Source of the DNA: a virus
IMG/VR virus record: IMGVR_UViG_3300027852_000026
Coordinates: 1 to 39,007 of that record
DNA: 39,007 nt
Strand: one strand, 5' to 3'
The position numbers and the translations under genes were made by a program. Shown here in pieces: positions 10,350 to 20,433 of this stretch (positions within the stretch are counted from its first letter, which is position 1; each line of letters starts with the position of its first letter). The notes beneath the pieces were generated by a model. The model had not been told where the DNA came from and made no database searches. It saw nothing but the letters and a program-made list of their open reading frames with translations.

Positions 10350-12235
10350 CCACCATTCCACAGTGGGTATCTATTGGTGCTGTTACTCCAGCAGGCACGG
10401 CAAATATCCAGGCCACCGCAAAAGAATTGCGAGCCACCATCGTGGCAGGCGAAGCGCCAATACCTGTTGTGTATGGCGAGGTGCAAATAGGCGGGCAGGT
10501 ATTTGCTACCACGTTTGCCGGTGGGTTTTGGTATTTAGGTGTTTTATTTTGTGTTGGTGAAGTTGAAGCGGTTGACGCTATTTATTTAAACGGCGCGGCC
10601 CCTGTAAGCGGTGTCACAGTAAACACCTACACCGGCACCACCGGGCAAACGGCAGACGCGCTGCTTAGCGCGGCCATTAGTGGTTATGCTGACACACTGG
10701 TTATTAGCCACCCGGCCGGTGATGTGGGTATTTGTTATGCAGTCATTAAATACACCGATGCGCATTACAGTGGCCTGCCCAGTATGGTGGCCAAGATTCG
10801 CGGGCGTAAGGTTTATAATACAGCAACAACGCTGACCGCTTACACCGCAAACCCTGCGTTGTGTTTGCGTGATTTTATTAGCAATGCAGCTTTCGGCATG
10901 GGCGAGACGGTAGATGATGCAAGCGCTACCATTGTGGCCAGTGCTTGCGATGCGGTGGTGGTAGCGAATGCCAGGCGCACAATTGGCCTGGCAATTACAT
11001 CCGCAAAAGACCCACAAAAATGGGGCGATATTCTCGCCATGTACGCGGGGGCCTGGGTGTTTAAATCAAGTGACAAGTGGGCTTTTATTGCCGACCGTCC
11101 GGCATCGTCAGTCGCCACTTTTACCGACGCCAATATAGTTGCCGACACCTTTAAAATAGCCATTGCCGACAGCGCTCAGGCGCCCACGGTTATCGAGGTT
11201 GCCTACATAGATAAAACTGACCTGCAGTGGCGCGAGCGCACAGCGCCTGCAGAGCTGCCCGGCGTAAGCACTGGCGCAACACCCCGGCGTGTCTCTCGCG
11301 TTAATATGCTAGGCGTTAATCGCTACGAGCAGGCCAAGCGCGAAGCACAGGAAAGGCTTAACAAGTTACAGCAAACCGTATCGATTGCCTTTACCGCGTT
11401 TGATAATCACATAGGCGTAGAGATTGGCGACGTGATTACCGTCACCCACAGTTACGGCATATCGGCTCAAGAATTTAGAGTAAAGAAACAACCCAAACTG
11501 GTAAGCCCTGGCCGCGTTGCTATTGAAGCTGTGTGGTATGACGCTGCTGACTATAACGACACTGAAACCGCAGCGCCAACTTATGGTGACAGTGCTGACA
11601 GGCTGGGTGTTGAGCCAACCAGTGACGAGCTAACCGGCGCAGGCGACTGGCCAGACGTAACCAATAAGCCCGATTTTGGCGACCTGTCGTTACTCGACTT
11701 GATTGACACGGATGAAGTGGTTGCCAACGCGATTACCGGCCACGTTATATCGGAGGAGACTACTGATCAGACGGTAGTTCCTCGGCGTCCAACGGGTACA
11801 GTGGTACCAAGTTTAGATATTAGCATCGCGTCGGTTGTTCACACCTTGGCGAATGTTGCTATAGCCGGCCCTGGCGATGTTGTTGACGTGACGTTTGATG
11901 TTCGGCTTAGCATGACGAACTATTATACGAATTTAGTTTATAACTCTATAAAGTACAACAATTCAATGTATTTTGCTGTAAGGCGCGGCATATCTGGGCC
12001 TGTTGTTCATAGAGAGATACTTAATGTGAGAACGCCGACCGGATCGAATGTGTACACAAATGGAAATCTTTTTGTTCCGGCTATTGGTGTTGTCGATACG
12101 GGAGTGGCTGCCGGGGCGTATACCTATTACCTTTACATTCAACCTATTGACATGGTTTATCAGATTTACTCAGGGCAAGCAATGATCACAAAAGTAACCA
12201 ACTCCACCGGTCGCGCAGTGGTTTATAAAAAATGA
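10346..12235 (+). CDS. tail tip / host-specificity protein (gpJ-like, Phage-tail_3-type N-terminal region)
   Basis: 629 aa. GEAPIPVVYGEVQIGGQVF resembles the conserved IPVVYG..R.GG motif of J-like central tail proteins, and the gene position fits. Confidence 0.7.
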   Translation: MTTIPQWVSIGAVTPAGTANIQATAKELRATIVAGEAPIPVVYGEVQIGGQVFATTFAGGFWYLGVLFCVGEVEAVDAIYLNGAAPVSGVTVNTYTGTTGQTADALLSAAISGYADTLVISHPAGDVGICYAVIKYTDAHYSGLPSMVAKIRGRKVYNTATTLTAYTANPALCLRDFISNAAFGMGETVDDASATIVASACDAVVVANARRTIGLAITSAKDPQKWGDILAMYAGAWVFKSSDKWAFIADRPASSVATFTDANIVADTFKIAIADSAQAPTVIEVAYIDKTDLQWRERTAPAELPGVSTGATPRRVSRVNMLGVNRYEQAKREAQERLNKLQQTVSIAFTAFDNHIGVEIGDVITVTHSYGISAQEFRVKKQPKLVSPGRVAIEAVWYDAADYNDTETAAPTYGDSADRLGVEPTSDELTGAGDWPDVTNKPDFGDLSLLDLIDTDEVVANAITGHVISEETTDQTVVPRRPTGTVVPSLDISIASVVHTLANVAIAGPGDVVDVTFDVRLSMTNYYTNLVYNSIKYNNSMYFAVRRGISGPVVHREILNVRTPTGSNVYTNGNLFVPAIGVVDTGVAAGAYTYYLYIQPIDMVYQIYSGQAMITKVTNSTGRAVVYKK

Positions 12236-13056
12236 AGTGTTTTTTACGCTTTGATGCCGACGGCAGAATAATTGGCAAGCAGCGGCGCACGGGCGACCAG
12301 TTGCCAGCTATTGAGCTTGACGAGCAAGGCGCGGCGTTGCCTTACCCTGACTTTATTGGCGAAGAGATTACCGCCCCCGATTTTATTAAATACCAGGACC
12401 ATGACCGCTGGTGGCGTGATGCGGGTGAAATTAAGCCTCGCACAAAAATAGCCATACCATTGCCAGCCCGCCAGCGCCTTGCTGCCCAGCCCGCTATTTT
12501 ATGGGAGCGAGTGCCTGGTGACGCAGGTGCGGCAGGATGGCAGCCCGGCGCCGTGGTTAGTGTTGATGCTATTGTTTCTATCAAGCCGTATTTGGCCTAC
12601 CAGTGCAAAAAGGCGGGTGTTACCGGGCTTGTGCCGCCAGAGTGGGGCGCCGACACTGTATGGGAGCCTATGCCCGCCGTAAAGTGGGCGCGCACAAGAA
12701 GGGCTGTGGCCGGTGGCGAGCAAGGCTGGCAGGCGTATTCTATTTACGCGGCAGGTGAGTTGGTGCTTTTTGGCGGCATTATTTGGCGGGCTATGGCCGC
12801 TGGTGTATCTGCAGCGCGTAGGCCTGCGTTTGCCGGTGCTGGTGAGGGTGCCGAGCTTTCTGATCGTGACGAGTTATCTATACCGCTGCCTGACCTTGGC
12901 GGCCATAAAGTGATTATGAAAATAGCTGGTGAGCGGCACGAGCTCACCGAGCGTGTTGATGTGTTTAAGCCCGAGCCCGGCATGATAACGGTCGAGCTAG
13001 ACAGCCCTGGTTTTTATTCTGACCCTTATTTTATTATTGTTGAGACGCAAGACTAA
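12232..13056 (+). CDS. tail-associated protein with Trp/aromatic repeats reminiscent of CBM5/12 carbohydrate-binding modules
   Basis: 274 aa, ATGA-coupled to the J-like gene. The segments WQPGAVVSVDAIVSIKPYLAYQC and WQAYSIYAAGELVLFGGIIWRA resemble W..g..Y..Gd.V...g..y.a. Confidence 0.5.
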   Translation: MKCFLRFDADGRIIGKQRRTGDQLPAIELDEQGAALPYPDFIGEEITAPDFIKYQDHDRWWRDAGEIKPRTKIAIPLPARQRLAAQPAILWERVPGDAGAAGWQPGAVVSVDAIVSIKPYLAYQCKKAGVTGLVPPEWGADTVWEPMPAVKWARTRRAVAGGEQGWQAYSIYAAGELVLFGGIIWRAMAAGVSAARRPAFAGAGEGAELSDRDELSIPLPDLGGHKVIMKIAGERHELTERVDVFKPEPGMITVELDSPGFYSDPYFIIVETQD

Positions 13057-13418
13057 TGGCGCAAAAACTACAAGCGGCCAACAGCCCAGCAGGCGGGCAC
13101 CCCGACACCGCGCCCGACAACACTATTCAGCGCAACACGGCTGCCATTGGCAAATTAGTTTTTACCGTTAACGAACACAAAGCCGCCATGGCCGATATGG
13201 CCAAAGAAATTAGCCAGCAAATGCAGGCGATGGCCGAGCACCGCAAAATAATTGACGCTCACTTTGCAGAAACCCAGCGCAGTGCCGACACCGTGGCTGA
13301 GCTGGTGCTTGAAATGCGCGCCTTGAATTTAGCAATACCCGCATTAATTGACGCGGTGGGCGAGCATGTGCCGGCGCTGGTAGAAAACACCAAGGCAATA
13401 AAGGGTTTTCGCTTGTAA
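13056..13418 (+). CDS. hypothetical helical / coiled-coil protein
   Basis: 120 aa, with TAATG coupling at both ends. Confidence 0.6.
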   Translation: MAQKLQAANSPAGGHPDTAPDNTIQRNTAAIGKLVFTVNEHKAAMADMAKEISQQMQAMAEHRKIIDAHFAETQRSADTVAELVLEMRALNLAIPALIDAVGEHVPALVENTKAIKGFRL

Positions 13419-14692
13419 TGCCCGAAAACATCGCCTCGCGCATCGCCAAACTGGCCGCTATTGCACCAGAGCCGCTGAGCGAGGCGCAGGCCATTGCAGC
13501 GCGTCGCCTATACTCAACCCTAGCCCAGCTTGAGTATATTGCTGTGCTGGCCGCTGAGCGAGGCGATTGTGTTGACGGCCAGCTCGAGGATGAGCTGGTA
13601 CACCGTGGCGTATTTATTCAGCTTGCTCAGCAGCTCGGCGGCGTGTGTGTGGTTAGCCCGGAAACCCGTGAGCTGGTTGCCAAGCTAGAAGCAATGCGCG
13701 GGCCGCAGTCGTTGTTGTTGTTAAATATTGTTGCAGAAACATGGCTCGAAACTGTTTTTGATGAGCTCGCAAAGCCCGGTTGGGGCAGTGAATTATTTGC
13801 GGCCGTTGAAGCCGACGAAGCCCGTCATGTTGCCGGTGCCTGGGCCGCTGAAATACCCGATGCCGCGGCCATGCGCGATGACCTGGCAGACATTGAAAAA
13901 GCCCTGGCAAATATAGGTTTGTCGACAGGTTTTATTTTACCGCTGCGCCACCTTCGCGGTGCAGCGTTTTGCGGCAACATGGGCCTTGCGGCTATTGCTA
14001 GTCATGAAAAAGTTTGCGCCCGCCTTGGTGTTGCGCCGGGGCGAGTTATTGGTAAATTAAAAGCCTTTAGCCGTGGCATTAAAATGCTGCCGATGCCCGA
14101 TGTTATTAAACCAACGCCGGGGCGGCTGTCGTTAATGCGGGCATCGCCTGTGCCGTTTGTAATGGACTCTATTATTAGCGTGCCCAACCGCTTCGCGCTG
14201 CCCTTGGCCGCCGTGGTAAAAGCCGCCAGCCAAACACTGCACGACCACTCCGAGCTGCGCCGGGCAATGCGTGGCGATGTGCTGTACCAGCACAGCGAAG
14301 CCACCGTTTATGTGCGGGTAAAAATGCCCACCGGCATTATGTCGGTAAGCCTGCGTGCTGCCTGGCAACACACCCCGCGAGAAATTTACCGGCAAATAAA
14401 AAAACAACGGGCAAGGCTGGCCCGGCGCAAGCACTACCCACTGCCCCCGCTGGGTGACATGGAGCCACTGCTACCGCCAGCGCAAGCCGCACTGGCAGTG
14501 ACCGATATATCACGCTGGGGTTTTGACAATGGCACCACCCCGCTTGTGCCGGCAGAAGGCGTACCAATTGTCATAACGCTGGGTATAATAACAGTGGATA
14601 AAATCACAGTATCCTTTTCAATGGACCACCGTGTTTTTGATGCCTCAGACATGGGCCTGCTGCGGGATAGTTTGCTTGATCATTTAGGGTAA
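13418..14692 (+). CDS. two-domain protein: N-terminal ferritin-like di-iron domain fused to a C-terminal 2-oxoacid-dehydrogenase (E2) / CAT-like acyltransferase domain
   Basis: 424 aa. Two E...ExxH pairs are present (LEY..EDELVH at residues ~39-62 and ETWLETVFDE..EADEARH at ~107-137). The C-terminus is collinear with the E2 catalytic domain and ends in SFSMDHRVFDASDMGLL, a variant of the DHRxxDG motif. Confidence 0.55.
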   Translation: MPENIASRIAKLAAIAPEPLSEAQAIAARRLYSTLAQLEYIAVLAAERGDCVDGQLEDELVHRGVFIQLAQQLGGVCVVSPETRELVAKLEAMRGPQSLLLLNIVAETWLETVFDELAKPGWGSELFAAVEADEARHVAGAWAAEIPDAAAMRDDLADIEKALANIGLSTGFILPLRHLRGAAFCGNMGLAAIASHEKVCARLGVAPGRVIGKLKAFSRGIKMLPMPDVIKPTPGRLSLMRASPVPFVMDSIISVPNRFALPLAAVVKAASQTLHDHSELRRAMRGDVLYQHSEATVYVRVKMPTGIMSVSLRAAWQHTPREIYRQIKKQRARLARRKHYPLPPLGDMEPLLPPAQAALAVTDISRWGFDNGTTPLVPAEGVPIVITLGIITVDKITVSFSMDHRVFDASDMGLLRDSLLDHLG

Positions 14693-14740
14693 TGGCATGG
14701 GTAGCAAGGTAAGGCTCGACCCTGTAGAGGGGTTTTTAGT

Positions 14741-14992
14741 ATGCGCGGCTACGCCGTTGCGGGTGACCCTGCAATTCCGTTGGTTGATGAGGGCCGAGAA
14801 TACTGCGCAGTGGCAACCATCACTATTGCCGGACACGTTGCCATAGCCACGCTAACTAAAGGTGATTTAAAAGGCTGGCAACTGTGGGCAGATATTGACG
14901 CAGCCCTGCGGGCAAAAGGTGTTACAGAGCTGCATTGGCAGCGACATAAAAATGGAAAAGTTTTAAACAAAAAAAGGCGAATTAAATCATGA
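14741..14992 (+). CDS. hypothetical protein
   Basis: 83 aa. GAGGGG lies 8 nt upstream of the ATG, and the stop overlaps the next ATG (ATGA). Confidence 0.55.
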   Translation: MRGYAVAGDPAIPLVDEGREYCAVATITIAGHVAIATLTKGDLKGWQLWADIDAALRAKGVTELHWQRHKNGKVLNKKRRIKS

Positions 14993-15489
14993 TTAAAAAT
15001 ATTCTTTTATCTGTTTTGTTATTGGTTAGCTTTGGCGCGTTTGCTGAGTTCGACCAAACTAACCCGGCACATTTGCTGACTCTAAAGACAGAGGTTAACG
15101 ACGACCCGATTGGCATGGGGTATAGCGAGGTTGTTAACGTAACCTCTCGACTGCTAGCGATGCTCAACGAGCCAGAACAAAACGTGGGTGGTGAAAACAC
15201 GAGCATTGAACTAACGGTTGACGCACTATTTGATGCTGTTGACCCTGCTGATTTAGACGGGCCGCAAGTGAGCCAGGGTGAGCGTGATTTGCTTCTGTCG
15301 CTGATGGCACGAGATTTAAGTCTTAGCCTTGAGCACAGGCGCGCACAGATACGCGACTGGTTTCGCACTAACTCAACTACTGTGGATAACCTTGACGCGA
15401 TGGTGCGACTACTGTCGAGAGCAGAAGTGTTATTCGGGGCAGGCACTGTAATTAGCAAGGCAGACTGGCTAGCAGCGAGGGACAGCTAA
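14989..15489 (+). CDS. secreted protein with a Sec signal peptide, function unknown
   Basis: 166 aa. The N-terminus MIKNILLSVLLLVSFGAFA/EF has n-, h- and AxA-type c-regions. This is the first gene of an AT-richer block. Confidence 0.7.
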   Translation: MIKNILLSVLLLVSFGAFAEFDQTNPAHLLTLKTEVNDDPIGMGYSEVVNVTSRLLAMLNEPEQNVGGENTSIELTVDALFDAVDPADLDGPQVSQGERDLLLSLMARDLSLSLEHRRAQIRDWFRTNSTTVDNLDAMVRLLSRAEVLFGAGTVISKADWLAARDS

Positions 15490-15938
15490 TGACTATCCTT
15501 GATAGTGATCTGCTTACAGAGATACAAGCGGGTATTAATGTAGGGTTAGGTGCGCGATTAATCACGCGACAGCTTAATCTGCCTGGCAGTGCTTTAATAC
15601 CATCATGGGTGGTTTCTCCTGACAGCGCCGCAGTAGACAAAGAGCTGTTCCTGCAAGAGCTGTCACTGACAGAAGCCGGGGCATTGCAAACACTCATGGA
15701 TAGCGGCACACCTGAAGGGCAGGCGCTGAAGTTCAAGTTAAATCAATCCAGCACTATTGACATGAGTAAAACAACAAACCGCGACTTTGTGGCTGCACTA
15801 AAGTTAGGCGGTGCGATCAGTGCCACGACGGCGGCTAGTTTGTTAAGACTTGGTGAAGTGCAAGCTAGCAGGTCGCAGGAGCTATGGGAAGTTGCGGTAT
15901 CTATCAAACAAGTTAAATCTGTGATGGGGGTAGTGTAA
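15489..15938 (+). CDS. hypothetical protein, weak signal-less paralogue of the preceding gene
   Basis: 149 aa. Collinear weak similarity to the upstream product (RDWF/RDFV; LLSRAEVLFGAGTVISKAD versus ASRSQELWEVAVSIKQVKS), plus TAATG coupling. Confidence 0.6.
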   Translation: MTILDSDLLTEIQAGINVGLGARLITRQLNLPGSALIPSWVVSPDSAAVDKELFLQELSLTEAGALQTLMDSGTPEGQALKFKLNQSSTIDMSKTTNRDFVAALKLGGAISATTAASLLRLGEVQASRSQELWEVAVSIKQVKSVMGVV

Positions 15939-16336
15939 TGGCTAGAGGCTTTGATAGATTTTTAGATAGCTTCCCTTGTCAAGCCAGTGCAGTAATCTCT
16001 GCTGATGCGGTTTCTAGCGGCACAAAAGTTGCGTATGACACCAGCCCCGGAGACCTTTTTATGGACGGGTGCAGGGAAGCAGAAGTAGAGATTGACGTAA
16101 CGGCTGCACCTGCGTCTGTAGCTCAATGTGAGATATACCATGAGCCGCTACAGCATGGAGGTGTGGGCAATACATCTGCAAAGGTAGTTGGCAGAGTGCA
16201 AATAGAAACAATAGTGGATAAGTACACAGTCAATGTTACCGGCCTATCGGAAAAAGGTTATATCTACCTAAAGGCAATAGATGCAGGTTTCACTGCTAGC
16301 GCGGCAATGCGCGGCATTTATATAGCTGATAGCTAG
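15938..16336 (+). CDS. hypothetical protein, beta-rich by composition
   Basis: 132 aa, TAATG-coupled. Confidence 0.6.
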   Translation: MARGFDRFLDSFPCQASAVISADAVSSGTKVAYDTSPGDLFMDGCREAEVEIDVTAAPASVAQCEIYHEPLQHGGVGNTSAKVVGRVQIETIVDKYTVNVTGLSEKGYIYLKAIDAGFTASAAMRGIYIADS

Positions 16337-17175
16337 TGTCAATCCTTATACGGAAAGATAAAGAATTCTGGCAGAGGAAGCCTTCTGGGCTGATTGAGTT
16401 AAGTTATGAAAATTGCATAGCACCAGAACTTGATCTGTTTGTCCCCTTTGACGGGACGGTATTGGCGCATGGAGGGTTATCGCTAGGTGATCCAACGCTG
16501 GAGTCTAGTGGATCTGATACAGAGTACCTTCAATGGGCAGATGACGGGCTGGAAAACAGCATTTATGATGGCGTTTACTCTGACGGCATGGGTGTACGTA
16601 CACAACTGCGCGATGACCTTGTCTACTCAGATCGGCTTGTCGGAGCGCAAATACGGAGTGTTGGCGGCAATTTCATCAGTTACAACTTTGTAATAGGTGG
16701 GGATAATTGGGATGACTCATTAAAAAGCTGTAGGGGGACTCGGCACAACGGTATCGCTGTTGCTGGCGATGGTACGGATATACATATTGAGGTCGCGGCA
16801 AGATCCGCGATATTTGCAGGCGCGTTGATTAGGGACGGTCTGCCGCATACATATATTGCTCATGTATCAACGCCATCGACTAGAGAAGTTTCGTTGTTTA
16901 TTGATGGCGTGTTATTCGGCACTCAGTCGGTTGGCGTAGCAAGTTTTAAGGTGGCTAACGAGTTTAATTTCGGGGCTGGTGACTGGCAGAACCGGGGTTT
17001 AAATGGGGTTGTGAACTCGTGCTTCTACATCAATGGTAAAGTAGACATTGGGGTGGCGAAGTCACTCTCAGAAAACCCTTATCAGGTTGTAAAAAAACGC
17101 CGTAAATACTGGGTTATGCCAAGCGGCGCAACAAGCTCTGCCCCAATAATGGCCTCAGTCCTACGAGGTGCTTAA
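16336..17175 (+). CDS. LamG/concanavalin-like jelly-roll domain protein (possible fibre or receptor-binding accessory)
   Basis: 279 aa with a GTG start overlapping the upstream stop. FNFGAGDWQNRGLNGVVNSCFYINGKVDIGVAKSLSENPYQV resembles the C-terminal strands of Laminin_G_3 domains. Confidence 0.45.
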   Translation: MSILIRKDKEFWQRKPSGLIELSYENCIAPELDLFVPFDGTVLAHGGLSLGDPTLESSGSDTEYLQWADDGLENSIYDGVYSDGMGVRTQLRDDLVYSDRLVGAQIRSVGGNFISYNFVIGGDNWDDSLKSCRGTRHNGIAVAGDGTDIHIEVAARSAIFAGALIRDGLPHTYIAHVSTPSTREVSLFIDGVLFGTQSVGVASFKVANEFNFGAGDWQNRGLNGVVNSCFYINGKVDIGVAKSLSENPYQVVKKRRKYWVMPSGATSSAPIMASVLRGA

Positions 17176-17670
17176 ATGCCCACAATCTATCGCGGTGGCA
17201 TGACCACCCTGTGGTTCACGCTGCAATCAAACGAGGAGCTAGGCATTCTCGACACCGATTATATTGAAGATTATTTCGGTAACGACGGGCAGGCCTCGCT
17301 CTATCATATAAGCACCGATACCTATTACCCGGTTGTTATGATTGCCCAGCCCGACCAAACGCCTGATATTGACAATGATGTATTTATGGGCAGTTATTTG
17401 TTCAGTTTATTGCCCGATGGCGATTACGAAATACGTGGCCGGGTGCGTGATGTTGTGGGTAATTACACGATATTAAGCGCCGTACAAAACCCGGCGGGCG
17501 GTGAGGGTGTGCAGGCCCTGAGCCTGACTATTGTCGATGGTTTTGGCACTATTTATGTCATTAATGCTGGGCCGCTGTTAATTCGTACAGGTATCGACAC
17601 GGGTGCGCATATTGGTCCAGTCATCGCCGCGCCTTTGTCTTTTGGTTTGGCTGCTGCCGCCCCTTCGTGA
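17176..17670 (+). CDS. hypothetical protein, Ig-like/beta-sandwich by composition
   Basis: 164 aa. The ATG comes directly after the upstream TAA. Confidence 0.55.
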   Translation: MPTIYRGGMTTLWFTLQSNEELGILDTDYIEDYFGNDGQASLYHISTDTYYPVVMIAQPDQTPDIDNDVFMGSYLFSLLPDGDYEIRGRVRDVVGNYTILSAVQNPAGGEGVQALSLTIVDGFGTIYVINAGPLLIRTGIDTGAHIGPVIAAPLSFGLAAAAPS

Positions 17671-17743
17671 TTTTTGTATTTCAAGGTCACAAGGAATATC
17701 AATGGCTTACGTGCTTTGCTTGTCTGTAATTTAAAGGGTTTTT

Positions 17744-18085
17744 ATGAAAAACATACTAGCGCGCACTAGCGACCATGGGTTTTATTTGTCGTTTACTGTC
17801 GATGTGGATTTAACCACGATGAGCGGCGTGCGCCTGGCCGTTGCGCGGCCGAGTAACACTAATGTGCTACGTGATTTAGCTACGGCTAGCTGGAACACTC
17901 TCACCGCTGGCGATGTGTTGAATGTGGCAATTGACCCTGCTGATTTTGACATTAAAGGTAATTATGTTTTTCAGGTGTTTGCCCGGCGAGTGGCGGGGCA
18001 AACTGAAGAAGTCGCCTATTCAAGTCAGCCCTTTAAAATGAATGTCGCCGCGCCAATTATCGCCGACCCCTGGCAAGCAATTTAA
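17744..18085 (+). CDS. hypothetical protein
   Basis: 113 aa. AAGGG lies 5-6 nt upstream of the ATG, and the stop overlaps the next ATG. Confidence 0.6.
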   Translation: MKNILARTSDHGFYLSFTVDVDLTTMSGVRLAVARPSNTNVLRDLATASWNTLTAGDVLNVAIDPADFDIKGNYVFQVFARRVAGQTEEVAYSSQPFKMNVAAPIIADPWQAI

Positions 18086-18276
18086 TGGCCTTTAAAAGCG
18101 CACCCTGTTTTATTTGCCACAACATCTTCGATTTTAATACCGACAACGGCGAGCCGGCGCACCCGGTGTGCCCGAGCTGCAGCAATAATATTCGCCCCCA
18201 GCTCGCCAAAAAACAAAACCTTATTGATAAAGCCCTGACTGCAACAACAGCGACGGAGACCGCCCCCAATGACTGA
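18085..18276 (+). CDS. small zinc-ribbon protein
   Basis: 63 aa with CFIC...(17 residues)...CPSC, i.e. two CxxC pairs. Confidence 0.6.
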   Translation: MAFKSAPCFICHNIFDFNTDNGEPAHPVCPSCSNNIRPQLAKKQNLIDKALTATTATETAPND

Positions 18277-18490
18277 TTTTACCGGCAAATATAAAACTGT
18301 GAGCGAGGCGCCCGTGGGTTGGCGCACAGTGCGGGGCGTGCCCCTGCAGCTTTACCAGTTAAATGCAATTGTTGAGCTGGCCGAGAAAAGCCCTGATTTG
18401 TTCCCGGTTGCACTGGGTACAATACGGGCCGAGTTTGAACGCACTCACGAGATTAAAAATGGCCAATGGGCACCGAAGGAGGTTCACTGA
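18269..18490 (+). CDS. hypothetical protein
   Basis: 73 aa, overlapping both neighbours. Confidence 0.55.
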   Translation: MTDFTGKYKTVSEAPVGWRTVRGVPLQLYQLNAIVELAEKSPDLFPVALGTIRAEFERTHEIKNGQWAPKEVH

Positions 18491-19407
18491 TGTCGCAAAT
18501 TACATTAAATGGCGCGGGGGCAAGCGCTGCTGACCCTATTTTAAAAAGCCTGTTGCTCGACTGGGTGTTTTTCAGCACGTCAATGGATGTGGCCGTTGTT
18601 AACGATGCTTTCATCGACACCGCGACCGGGTTCCCTGGCACCAATACTATTAAATCAAACCTCAGCCCGGCGGCGACGGTTATTACCGGCGGCTCGGCAG
18701 GTGGCTATAACGACACCAGCAAAAACTGGACGCTAAGCAGCACCACAGGCCTGACGGCTGGCGACTATATTTATTTGTCGCACGCGCTGATCACCGACGG
18801 TATTTACAAAATCGCTAGCGTGGTCGATGGTACTAACGTTACTATTGCCGGCAACCCTTTAAATGGGCAGGGCAACCAGAGTAATGTCGCGTATCAAGTA
18901 GCATGGGCATGGCAGGGCGGTGCGGGCTCTGTCGGCAGCGGTAGTGATGCCAGTGGCGTGAATAACTTTTTCAAAGCCGACACCGAAGACGGTGGCGCGG
19001 CTGGCACCGAGCACGAAGACAGTAGTTATGTGCGCGATGCCCCCGCAGGCTCGGGCTACATCACCCTGCAGGGTGGCAACTACACCGGCCAAACCGTTGG
19101 CGTGTTCGCCCTTAGCCTGGCAATCCTCAGCGGCTGGACAAACAGCGGCGGCGTAACTCACTTGGAGCTCGCCAATCACAGCGTGCAGAGCGTGAATAAC
19201 TTTACCTGGACCACCGGCGGTGGCACAGGTGAGAAGACCATTGGCGATGCTGAGGGTGGTCTGCAGGCCGCCGCTGGCGATGGCATTAAGTACGGGCGCT
19301 TGTTGCTGAAAGGCGTTTCAGGCAGCGCAACCCCCGTGGGTGTTGATTTCAGTATCACCATCGACACTGCAGGGCCTGTTATGTCGAGTGTGTTGCTGGC
19401 GGCTTAA
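18490..19407 (+). CDS. Gly/Thr/Ser-rich fibre-like protein, last gene of the late operon
   Basis: The ATG at 18490 is preceded by a perfect AAGGAGG 7 nt upstream and overlaps the upstream TGA. It is preferred over the track start at 18466. 305 aa. Confidence 0.65.
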   Translation: MSQITLNGAGASAADPILKSLLLDWVFFSTSMDVAVVNDAFIDTATGFPGTNTIKSNLSPAATVITGGSAGGYNDTSKNWTLSSTTGLTAGDYIYLSHALITDGIYKIASVVDGTNVTIAGNPLNGQGNQSNVAYQVAWAWQGGAGSVGSGSDASGVNNFFKADTEDGGAAGTEHEDSSYVRDAPAGSGYITLQGGNYTGQTVGVFALSLAILSGWTNSGGVTHLELANHSVQSVNNFTWTTGGGTGEKTIGDAEGGLQAAAGDGIKYGRLLLKGVSGSATPVGVDFSITIDTAGPVMSSVLLAA

Positions 19408-19415
19408 TTGTGGTG

Positions 19416-20372
19416 CTACAGCTTGTCAGCCAGCTGTTCGGCTGTTTTGTTGTAGTACACCATTAAAATTTTCAGGTCTTTAATGCCGACCATGCGGGCC
19501 AGTTCAAGCACGTCGAGCTTTTCAGCCAGACGTGTGATGGCCTCGTGTCGGGAGTCGTGAAAATGCAGGTCGTTGATGCCTGCGCGGTCGCGGATTTTGC
19601 GAAACAAGCTGCTGATTTGCTCGCTGTTTAAATCGAGTAGCTTGTCGCCCAGTGGTTCGAGCAGTTCCAGCGCTTTGGGTGACAGCGGCACATCGCGCCG
19701 GGTGCCATTTTTTGTCATCGGTAAGTGGGCAACGCGCCCGGTAATGCTGGCGCGTGTTAGCCCTGCCAGCTCTCCTGCGCGCATGCCCGTTTCAATGGCT
19801 AGAATAAAGGCCAAAAACGTGCGCGCTGTTTTGGTCTCGGGCGTGTGGTCGTAACCCGAGCAATGGCGCAGTAGTTCTATTTCGTCATCGCGCACCCGTC
19901 GGTCACGGGCAGCTGGCGGCGGGGGTTTTTTCACCCCTTTCAATGGGTTGGTATGCATCCAGCCCCACTCGTTGATAGCCACGTTAATCGCATGGCTGAT
20001 CACATTCCAGTCACGGCGCACCGACGCCGCTGACACCTCGCGCAAACGCCTGTCGCGCCAGCCCGCCATATCGGCGGCACTCAATTCGCGTAAAGGCGTA
20101 GCTGCTACAGGCTCCCGCCCAATGCGAGCCAGGCGAATCACCTCCTGGCGCCAGCCTTTCTTGTGCGCCGCCACCTCGTCGCTATAGCGCGCCAATAACT
20201 CCCCTAGCGACTTGTTCGCCACCTCACCCAGCTTGTGGTTATCGATATCGGCTTCAAGCGCAGTGGCCCAACGCTGCGCCGCCGTTTTCGTCGCAAACGT
20301 CTTCGATTTGCGCAAACTCCCCCGCCGAACCTCAGCCCGCCAGCGCCCCTCGCGCTTTCTAATAGTCGCCAT
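19416..20372 (-). CDS. int: tyrosine recombinase / phage integrase
   Basis: Contains ETGMRAGEL (Arg), HFHDSRHEAITRL (HxxR) and MVYYNKT (Tyr), and the N-terminus MATIRKREGRWRAEVRRG is typical of these enzymes. The start is placed at the ATG at 20372. The track start at 20399 lies inside the repeat array. Confidence 0.9.
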   Translation of the reverse strand: MATIRKREGRWRAEVRRGSLRKSKTFATKTAAQRWATALEADIDNHKLGEVANKSLGELLARYSDEVAAHKKGWRQEVIRLARIGREPVAATPLRELSAADMAGWRDRRLREVSAASVRRDWNVISHAINVAINEWGWMHTNPLKGVKKPPPPAARDRRVRDDEIELLRHCSGYDHTPETKTARTFLAFILAIETGMRAGELAGLTRASITGRVAHLPMTKNGTRRDVPLSPKALELLEPLGDKLLDLNSEQISSLFRKIRDRAGINDLHFHDSRHEAITRLAEKLDVLELARMVGIKDLKILMVYYNKTAEQLADKL

Positions 20373-20390
20373 CTTGTTCCGCCCTGCGCC

Positions 20391-20433
20391 GTGGCGCACT
20401 TGTGGCGCACCACATGGCGCGCTGATGGCGCAC
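20391..20433. repeat. four helically phased direct repeats (G/A)TGGCGC(A/G)C just upstream of int
   Basis: GTGGCGCAC at 20391-20399 and 20402-20410, ATGGCGCGC at 20414-20422, and ATGGCGCAC at 20425-20433. Spacing is 11, 12 and 11 bp. Confidence 0.85.

Follow-up and report, generated by a model that had tools for sequence, protein, structure and literature searches.

Gene Structure and Predicted Protein

The window analyzed here is the whole 39,007-nt viral record IMGVR_UViG_3300027852_000026, a complete, circularly permuted temperate siphovirus genome of ~39 kb. At the end of its tail operon lies a gene whose 424-amino acid (aa) product appears to join a ferritin-like di-iron domain to an acyltransferase domain of the type found in 2-oxoacid dehydrogenase E2 components. 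A note made from the sequence alone (the original prediction) had reported a 424-aa open reading frame (ORF) at 13418–14692 that is coupled to its neighbor through TAATG. Both features are present: the ORF is complete, and its ATG overlaps the stop codon of an upstream 120-aa gene (TAATG, 13416–13420). The gene and the main elements of its product are as follows, residue numbers being those of the 424-aa product.

13418..14692, + strand: fusion protein ORF, complete, 424 aa plus stop; predicted di-iron-type oxidase / E2-type acyltransferase
13469..14092, + strand: N-terminal ferritin-like helical domain, residues ~18–225 (all-helical model, pLDDT 91)
13532..13603, + strand: first candidate ligand pair, E39 (helix A) and E59-x-x-H62 (helix B) (alignment, model)
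13736..13828, + strand: second candidate ligand pair, E107 (helix C) and E134-x-x-H137 (helix D) (alignment, model)
14093..14689, + strand: C-terminal domain of the E2/chloramphenicol acetyltransferase (CAT) superfamily, residues ~226–424 (PF00198, PDB profile, Foldseek)
14501..14503, + strand: T362, putative counterpart of the E2 oxyanion Ser (Ser/Thr in 81/91 members, consensus V-[T/S]-N-x-G)
14624..14641, + strand: D403-H404-R405-V-F-D408, DHRxxD(G) active-site motif (aligns to E2 DHRxxDG)

All motifs quoted in that note were found in the protein, and the motif residues are conserved in 91 relatives. They comprise LEY (E39), EDELVH (E59 and H62), AETWLE (E107), EADEARH (E134 and H137) and the active-site motif SFSMDHRVFDASDMGLL, which provides D403-H404-R405 and D408. 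An AlphaFold2 model of the 424-aa protein built on the family alignment (mean pLDDT 90.2, pTM 0.86) is helical plus alpha/beta and is neither beta-rich nor fibre-like. The checks that had been proposed for the two-domain assignment thus yielded profile and structural matches, conserved motif residues and a model without a beta-rich fold. We consider it probable that both domains are as described and catalytically competent.

In PHROG, no family matched the 424-aa protein at E<=1, structural families included, and the viral structure library BFVD gave no significant match (the best being class I ribonucleotide reductase (RNR) R2, E = 0.016). Relatives of the protein are labeled "hypothetical protein" in public annotations.

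The N-Terminal Domain Is a Predicted Dimetal Oxidase or Oxygenase

When modeled separately, the N-terminal domain was again all-helical (pLDDT 91.3). The candidate metal ligands are located on four successive core helices: E39 on the first (residues 22–47), E59 and H62 on the second (55–72), E107 on the third (96–117), and E134 and H137 on the fourth (124–143). This order (E / ExxH / E / ExxH) is canonical for dimetal-carboxylate bundles. Spacing between the ligands is 20/48/27 residues, which is presumably shorter than in aldehyde-deformylating oxygenase (ADO) or R2. Several other residues are nearly invariant, including Q55, D58 and F66 (the last lying just downstream of the first ligand pair) and N103, W109 and R136 beside the second pair.

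Structural neighbors of this domain were searched for with Foldseek. Nearly all of the top 50 matches are dimetal-carboxylate enzymes, namely R2lox, RNR R2, ADO, acyl-ACP (acyl carrier protein) desaturase and soluble methane monooxygenase (sMMO); for most of the top matches the probability is 0.9–1.0, with TM-scores of 0.4–0.58 and weak E-values (0.019–0.6). A profile of 37 N-terminal domains searched against PDB matched over the ligand (ExxH) helix only, with the designed Due Ferri 4Glu/2His bundle at E = 1.9e-4 and the ligand helix of MmoX at E ~0.7. No match to the N-terminal domain of the query was detected in Pfam or NCBIfam at E<=10, and AurF was matched in Pfam by 2 of the 37 domains (best E = 1.9e-4).

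The four-helix di-iron assignment in the original prediction therefore stood with regard to fold and ligand placement, whereas membership in the R2, desaturase, COQ7 or MiaE families had no profile support and was rejected. By motif and fold, and with weak E-values, the domain is a predicted new family in the ferritin-like dimetal superfamily. It may function as a carboxylate-bridged dimetal oxidase or oxygenase built on a four-helix bundle, and the predicted metal is most likely an iron pair.

Compared with R2lox (6f6h), RNR R2, ADO (4rc5), acyl-ACP desaturase, sMMO MmoX and AurF, which share its four-helix core and ligand order and are the only structural neighbors found, the N-terminal domain is set apart by its fusion to an acyltransferase, by the lack of a matching Pfam family and by additional invariant residues (Q55, D58, N103, W109, R136, E160 and H196). 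Its nearest folds (R2lox, ADO and acyl-ACP desaturase) belong to proteins that either bind fatty acyl substrates or convert them.

The C-Terminal Domain Is a Predicted E2-Type Acyltransferase

The proposed relationship of the C-terminal domain to E2/CAT-type acyltransferases was borne out by three kinds of searches. PF00198 (2-oxoacid_dh catalytic domain) was matched above its gathering score (26.9 vs. 23 bits; E = 3.8e-6), and relatives of the protein score higher, up to 54.5 bits. The family profile matched E2 catalytic domains in PDB (E = 5e-5) over query residues 216–423, the top match being the actinobacterial AceF catalytic domain 6zzm (E = 5.2e-05). Foldseek returned more than 100 E2 cores from PDB at E<=1e-3 (4n72, 3mae, 1c4t and others), with a best E of 5e-9 and TM(target) of 0.54–0.67. 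On the other hand, Pfam showed no match to the CAT family, and the motif DHRxxD(G/A) is of the E2 type, not the CAT type (HHxxxDG).

Profile alignment suggests that T362 is the counterpart of the Ser in the TISNxG motif of E2. Judged from the sequence, the Ser/Thr-His-Asp catalytic set of E2/CAT acyltransferases (T362, H404 and D408) would be complete. The stretch that follows DHR is ~7–9 residues shorter than in E2 sequences.

Neither lipoyl nor peripheral-subunit-binding domains were matched by Pfam in the 424-aa protein, and E1 and E3 genes are absent from all recovered phage loci; one cellular locus has an E3-like flavoprotein gene nearby on the opposite strand, which is not a consistent pattern. 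Because these domains and partner genes are missing, the C-terminal domain belongs to the superfamily of E2 catalytic domains but not to the E2 of a dehydrogenase complex. We infer that it is a CoA- or ACP-dependent acyltransferase of the 2-oxoacid dehydrogenase E2/CAT superfamily, which by analogy with other E2 cores is probably trimeric. E2 cores such as E. coli E2p (4n72), the Listeria protein (3mae) and Corynebacterium AceF (6zzi/6zzm) share with it the fold over ~200 residues, the His and Asp of DHRxxD(G) and the Ser/Thr of V-[TS]-N-x-G. The differences are an identity of 12–19%, the fusion to a dimetal domain and the location in a phage tail operon.

Family Size, Conservation and Selection

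A word-indexed search covering 5.8 billion proteins identified 13 close relatives of the 424-aa protein (96–31% identity). An exhaustive search with a hidden Markov model (HMM) over 1.84 billion cluster representatives (50% identity clusters) detected 313 relatives, 127 of them at E<=1e-10; 77 clusters were found at E<=1e-30, so that the family has at least 77 clusters. Most of these relatives are 400–480 aa long and match end to end. No attachment or fibre domain and no fusion to a tail domain was found across the 313 relatives, and among the short relatives the acyltransferase is not fused to a short-chain dehydrogenase, to tail domains or to either of two small proteins described below (c1 and c3).

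Conservation was counted over 91 full-length relatives, some of them at <30% identity, that had been aligned with MAFFT. All six candidate ligands are almost invariant (E39 in 89/91, E59 in 89, H62 in 90, E107 in 90, and E134 and H137 in all 91), and the same holds for DHR (D403 in 90/91, H404 in 89, R405 in 87). At position 408, 74 of the 91 members have D and 11 have N; the D/N alternation also occurs in bona fide E2 enzymes. Twenty-six positions are kept at >=85%, of which 22 are in the N-terminal domain, and DHR accounts for three of the remaining four. Since ligand and DHR residues are near-invariant across such divergent relatives, these motifs are not due to chance.

A syntenic counterpart lies in a prophage of Candidatus Reddybacter (Porticoccaceae; gammaproteobacterial metagenome-assembled genome, JBGFTA010000001.1, ~495.9–517.2 kb; locus L001), which has the same gene order and an enzyme that is 83% identical. 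Comparison of the two gave a dN/dS ratio (nonsynonymous to synonymous substitution rates) of 0.127 for the 424-aa gene, with 0.086 in the N-domain and 0.185 in the C-domain, and of 0.095 for the 120-aa gene. The 424-aa gene is under purifying selection, which is strongest in the N-domain. Identity between window and prophage is 83–86% for the 424-aa and 120-aa genes and 63–65% for the tape measure and the 274-aa gene that precedes the 120-aa gene.

Genomic Context in the Window Phage

The genes that define the window genome and the neighborhood of the 424-aa gene are listed below; where a single number is given, it is the position noted for that gene.

591: major capsid protein
4545: tail tube
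6404: tape measure, 1046 aa
10346..12235, + strand: J-like central tail fibre / tip protein, 629 aa, directly upstream of the module (phrog_31, E = 2.4e-32; PF13550, E = 7e-12)
12232..13056, + strand: 274-aa partner gene, similar to the ~158-aa c1 family at both its N- and C-terminal ends
13056..13418, + strand: 120-aa partner gene, helical / coiled-coil and c3-like, joined through TAATG to the genes on either side (c3 profile, E 0.0035–0.033)
14718..14734, + strand: small hairpin plus T-run in a 48-nt gap, weak candidate for an operon end (site count not above shuffled expectation)
19416–20399, − strand: integrase
28363: DnaB
35753: large terminase (terL)
37581: portal

The J-like tip protein that the original prediction had placed upstream was confirmed by its PHROG and Pfam matches. 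From the tape measure gene onward, ATGA and TAATG overlaps link J, the 274-aa gene, the 120-aa gene and the 424-aa gene in an unbroken chain. The 424-aa gene is the last member of this chain and is followed by the 48-nt gap, the sole true intergenic gap of this gene series. A terminator at this place was considered and rejected: the number of such sites is no higher than in shuffled sequence, and the gap is missing in the Reddybacter prophage, in which the next gene begins 2 nt past the stop. Translational coupling and purifying selection agree with the earlier view of a resident late gene.

GC content is 0.54–0.56 in the block formed by the 274-aa, 120-aa and 424-aa genes, 0.51 in J, 0.47–0.49 in the downstream genes, 0.56 in the terminase gene and 0.525 in the whole genome. 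The GC content that the gene was said to share with its neighbors is thus shared with the two coupled upstream genes, whereas the block is richer in GC than J and the genes that follow it. As the shift is modest and inside the range of the genome, a horizontally acquired compositional island was rejected.

The J-like tip protein has 629 aa in the window and 789 aa in the syntenic Reddybacter prophage (L001, 6446–8815). This difference in length suggests an exchange or indel in the part that determines host range.

A Tail-Distal Module Shared by Divergent Phages

We recovered 14 distinct phage loci with the full-length protein (the window, L001, L002, L004, L006–L011, L052, L054, L057 and L060) and four further phage loci in which a ~310-aa variant consists of the C-terminal domain alone (L019, L061, L062 and L063). 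An alignment of 56 sequences was too diverse for finding loci, and a degenerate DNA pattern for the invariant residues of the N-terminal domain gave 10 matches in IMG/VR, all of which were due to chance.

In all 18 distinct phage loci, the enzyme gene follows the gene of a very large tail protein at a distance of 0–3 genes. This protein is J-like by PHROG or Pfam in five loci (the window, L001, L007, L010 and L063) and homologous to the J-like set in another five (L002, L009, L019, L057 and L060); in L011, it is a giant DUF4815/phrog_358 protein. Two small proteins recur next to the enzyme. The first, c1 (~158 aa), was found in L004, L008, L009, L011, L019, L052, L054, L057, L060, L062 and L063. 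The second, c3, is a coiled-coil protein of 108–221 aa, and a c3 profile matches the gene that immediately precedes the enzyme gene in the window, L002, L004, L010, L019, L062 and L063 (E 1.5e-10 to 3.5e-3). c3 proteins share an "AEQFC.VA.DMR" segment with an invariant Cys, which the window and L002 versions lack. No match to c1 or c3 was found in PHROG, Pfam or PDB. An "ADG..D...V.VNG" pattern had led us to consider c1 as a bacterial Ig-like domain, which was supported neither by a profile search of PDB nor by Pfam. Another gene, c8 (300–359 aa), recurs downstream in L007, L057 and L063.

Of the proteins outside the c1 family, the 274-aa protein of the window is the one that the c1 HMM matches best (hhalign E = 7.7e-4, covering ~55 C-terminal residues); a faint CBM_5_12 signal (PF02839) is present in the central insert of this protein. 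In view of these profile matches, the trio of 274-aa, 120-aa and 424-aa genes can be regarded as the local version of a widespread c1/c3/enzyme module. Whether the enzyme functions together with this tail-distal module is, in our estimation, an evenly balanced question.

The gene is also present in virulent-looking phages, such as L004 (with DnaB, primase and ligase) and L061 (with DNA polymerase A), which argues against a purely lysogeny-related role. No match was obtained when the module components were searched with tblastn against 50,697 deposited phage genomes, or when the region was compared with deposited phages by megablast.

The length of c3 varies widely among loci, with 111–221 aa in L008 (8922–9257), L011 (11821–12312), L052 (6020–6685) and L054 (9797–10342). 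L052 (IMGVR_UViG_3300037789_000070, 327,992 bp) carries a family member, c1 and c3 on a contig classified as viral, which is either a jumbo phage or a prophage in a mis-assigned bacterial contig.

An Interchangeable Redox Partner

Of the four loci whose enzyme has the C-terminal domain only, three carry a FabG-like short-chain dehydrogenase (SDR) gene directly downstream of the acyltransferase gene in the tail module:

L019, 3617–4303: SDR gene
L061, 7933–8592: SDR gene
L063, 7915–8652: SDR gene

These SDRs are orthologous (36–44% identity) and keep the YxxxK signature. Gene order in L063 is lambda-type, i.e., gpM, gpL, gpK, gpI, gpJ, c1, c3, acyltransferase, SDR and c8. Because the sister lineage that lacks the di-iron domain has an SDR gene downstream in 3/4 loci, the acyltransferase is the constant element of the system and the redox partner is interchangeable. 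The occurrence of an SDR in place of the di-iron domain is hard to square with a purely structural role.

Among solved structures, the nearest relatives of the SDRs are for the most part 3-oxoacyl-ACP reductases of the FabG type (E 1e-18 to 1e-16). Since most classical SDRs in PDB are FabG-like, the pointer to FabG is soft. Together with the fatty-acyl-related folds nearest to the N-terminal domain, these relatives may be taken, by analogy, as soft pointers to acyl-chain chemistry.

Cellular Relatives

The search for the same architecture beyond phages, which had been recommended with the original prediction, recovered it in the phage loci above and in a chromosomal cellular subgroup of 570–700 aa that keeps both domains. 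Some cellular homologues (604–701 aa) adjoin a polyprenyl synthase gene (L012, 8636–12001; L014, 139–3344) or a gene of the squalene/phytoene synthase family (L015, 3248–6149). The neighbors in 21 further cellular loci are heterogeneous and include recF/gyrB, folD, FimV, a major facilitator superfamily transporter and one fatty-acid desaturase, which adjoins the homologue in L029; an aromatic amino acid permease is present in five of them. An isoprenoid or quinone function was examined on this basis and not adopted, the linkage being seen in only ~3/24 cellular loci; it is kept as a weak lead.

Two lineages of cellular homologues have distinctive sequences. P0106 and P0167 (L014 and L012) have DSR in place of DHR, and P0167 has lost several ligands (E to K, H to Q); these proteins may be inactive pseudoenzyme derivatives. 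P0079 and P0141 have a C-terminal hydrophobic, transmembrane-like helix followed by an Ala/Pro/Lys-rich tail, a sequence feature which suggests that these cellular enzymes are anchored in the membrane.

Possible Function and Alternative Explanations

The reading that we favor, at somewhat less than even confidence, is that the 424-aa protein is a soluble bifunctional enzyme. A di-iron centre needs a reductant and O2, an SDR needs NAD(P)(H), and an E2-like domain needs an acyl-thioester donor. As both chemistries require cytoplasmic cofactors, action inside the infected cell is most likely. In temperate as well as apparently virulent phages (L004 and L061), the gene keeps its place beside c1, c3 and tail-tip genes, which suggests that it is functionally linked to the tail tip. 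A reasonable scheme is that the enzyme would act in the cytoplasm late in infection, with the redox partner tailoring either a group of acyl or lipid type or the acceptor of this group. For the di-iron domain, this might be an O2-dependent hydroxylation or desaturation, and for the SDR of the sister lineage a keto/hydroxyl interconversion; the E2-like domain would then move the acyl group from a thioester donor to a target functionally tied to the tail tip. The preferred target would be a component of the adjacent tail-tip/fibre complex, modified before assembly, and an envelope precursor would be the alternative. That the enzyme acylates a virion protein must in itself be considered unlikely. 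Equally speculative, and if anything slightly less likely, is the fuller proposal that the c1/c3/acyltransferase module, with a fused oxidase or a separate reductase, is a virion-maturation system that lipidates a tail-tip or fibre protein before assembly. If true, there would be uncultured phages with a lipid-modified host-recognition apparatus, a virion modification that has not been described for tailed phages.

Several observations weigh against this favored enzyme and its link to the tail. The enzyme activity is a prediction from sequence and model. The structural E-values of the N-terminal domain are weak (>=0.019), and no sequence family matches it. c1 and c3 have no recognizable function, and their structural (fibre) nature is assumed; the c3-like protein of the window has no conserved Cys and so offers no obvious conserved acceptor residue. 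Cellular homologues occur in ordinary chromosomal contexts without tail genes, and the chemistry needs no virion substrate. Finally, the last place in the operon, a GC content slightly different from that of the outer neighbors and a hairpin after the gene are also typical of accessory cargo.

Such cargo (an auxiliary metabolic gene or moron that merely occupies the end of the tail operon and is not functionally linked to the tail proteins) is the main rival, an explanation that we find doubtful, yet serious enough to be weighed in full. Its product would remodel a host lipid, a quinone/isoprenoid or an envelope precursor, perhaps to mask a receptor, to exclude superinfecting phages or to take over host metabolism. 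The final position in the coupled chain, the 48-nt gap with its hairpin, and the GC of the module (0.54–0.56, vs. 0.47–0.51 in the outer neighbors) would all fit this explanation, but the gap and hairpin are not kept in the closest prophage, and the gene is translationally coupled to the upstream tail genes. It would also fit that the window phage is temperate, that two-domain homologues exist in cells, some of them beside polyprenyl synthase (L012, L014), squalene/phytoene synthase (L015) or fatty-acid desaturase (L029) genes, and that one cellular subgroup has a C-terminal hydrophobic helix. On the other hand, the isoprenoid linkage is confined to those ~3/24 cellular loci, the remainder being heterogeneous, and adjacency to c1, c3 and J-like genes persists across very divergent phages, virulent-looking ones included.

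Two other explanations had been raised in the original prediction and fared less well. The one that we found least supported among its three functional ideas is structural reuse, in which the trimer-forming E2 fold and the helical domain would serve as a fibre knob, an adaptor or a trimerization chaperone and catalysis would be irrelevant. E2 cores are obligate trimers, which would fit the threefold symmetry of a tail tip; the gene lies in a tail-distal module beside a coiled-coil protein of variable length; and the best PDB profile match is AceF (6zzm), a type of E2 core that is reportedly trimeric rather than the usual 24- or 60-mer. Yet the six ligands, DHR, D/N408 and S/T362 are near-invariant in the 91 divergent members, the most conserved positions being catalytic and ligand ones; an intact-looking SDR enzyme takes the place of the absent di-iron domain; no structural family of PHROG is matched; and the model is neither beta-rich nor fibre-like. 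A purely structural role is therefore unlikely, and we rate this explanation as improbable. Even less room is left for a virion-borne tail-tip enzyme acting on host surface lipid or lipopolysaccharide during adsorption or penetration, which we regard as very improbable. Its location with tail-tip genes would suit such an enzyme, and enzymatic tail domains (depolymerases, esterases and lysins) are common, but the reductant and the acyl-thioester donor are not available outside the cell, the SDR of the sister lineage needs NAD(P)(H), and none of the 313 relatives has an attachment or fibre domain or a tail-domain fusion.

Comparison with Known Systems

The claim that no described phage function matches this gene has held: none was found in PHROGs, INPHARED or the literature, and a full-text literature search gave nothing relevant on the module, the fusion or the tail association. 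The folds are known, while what appears to be undescribed is the family of the N-domain, the architecture of the fusion, the module and its association with the tail.

Phage enzymes that modify virion proteins offer one parallel, i.e., an enzyme gene embedded in a structural operon beside its putative substrates, with cytoplasmic action before assembly. Mycobacteriophage virion glycosyltransferases are said to be such enzymes, encoded among structural genes; in the present case, the proposed chemistry would be oxidation plus acylation rather than glycosylation. Lysogenic-conversion genes (O-antigen acetyltransferase Oac and GtrABC) offer another, with an acyl-transfer enzyme near host-specificity genes in a temperate phage. 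However, Oac and GtrABC are integral membrane proteins with unrelated folds and their own promoters, whereas the 424-aa protein is soluble, is coupled to tail genes and occurs also in virulent-looking phages.

Tail operons are thought to hold structural proteins, chaperones and occasional depolymerases. An apparently active oxidase-acyltransferase that is under strong purifying selection and travels with tail-tip genes in many unrelated uncultured phages points to an enzymatic step linked to host recognition or virion maturation. The family also defines a new ferritin-like dimetal family, as predicted by motif and fold, and a new two-domain architecture, which is also present in cellular organisms. 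With no component of the module in deposited phage genomes, this tail-associated biology is visible only in metagenomes. The protein is a tractable soluble target for biochemists, and the module is a testable one for phage biologists.

Region between the Enzyme and Integrase Genes

Among the genes tested at 14741–19407 of the window, no holin, endolysin or spanin was recognized. The interval contains ten + strand genes between the enzyme and integrase genes, with no PHROG or Pfam match among those tested. One of them, a 279-aa gene (16336–17175), is only 35% identical to its counterpart in the Reddybacter prophage, in which its neighbors are ~85% identical.

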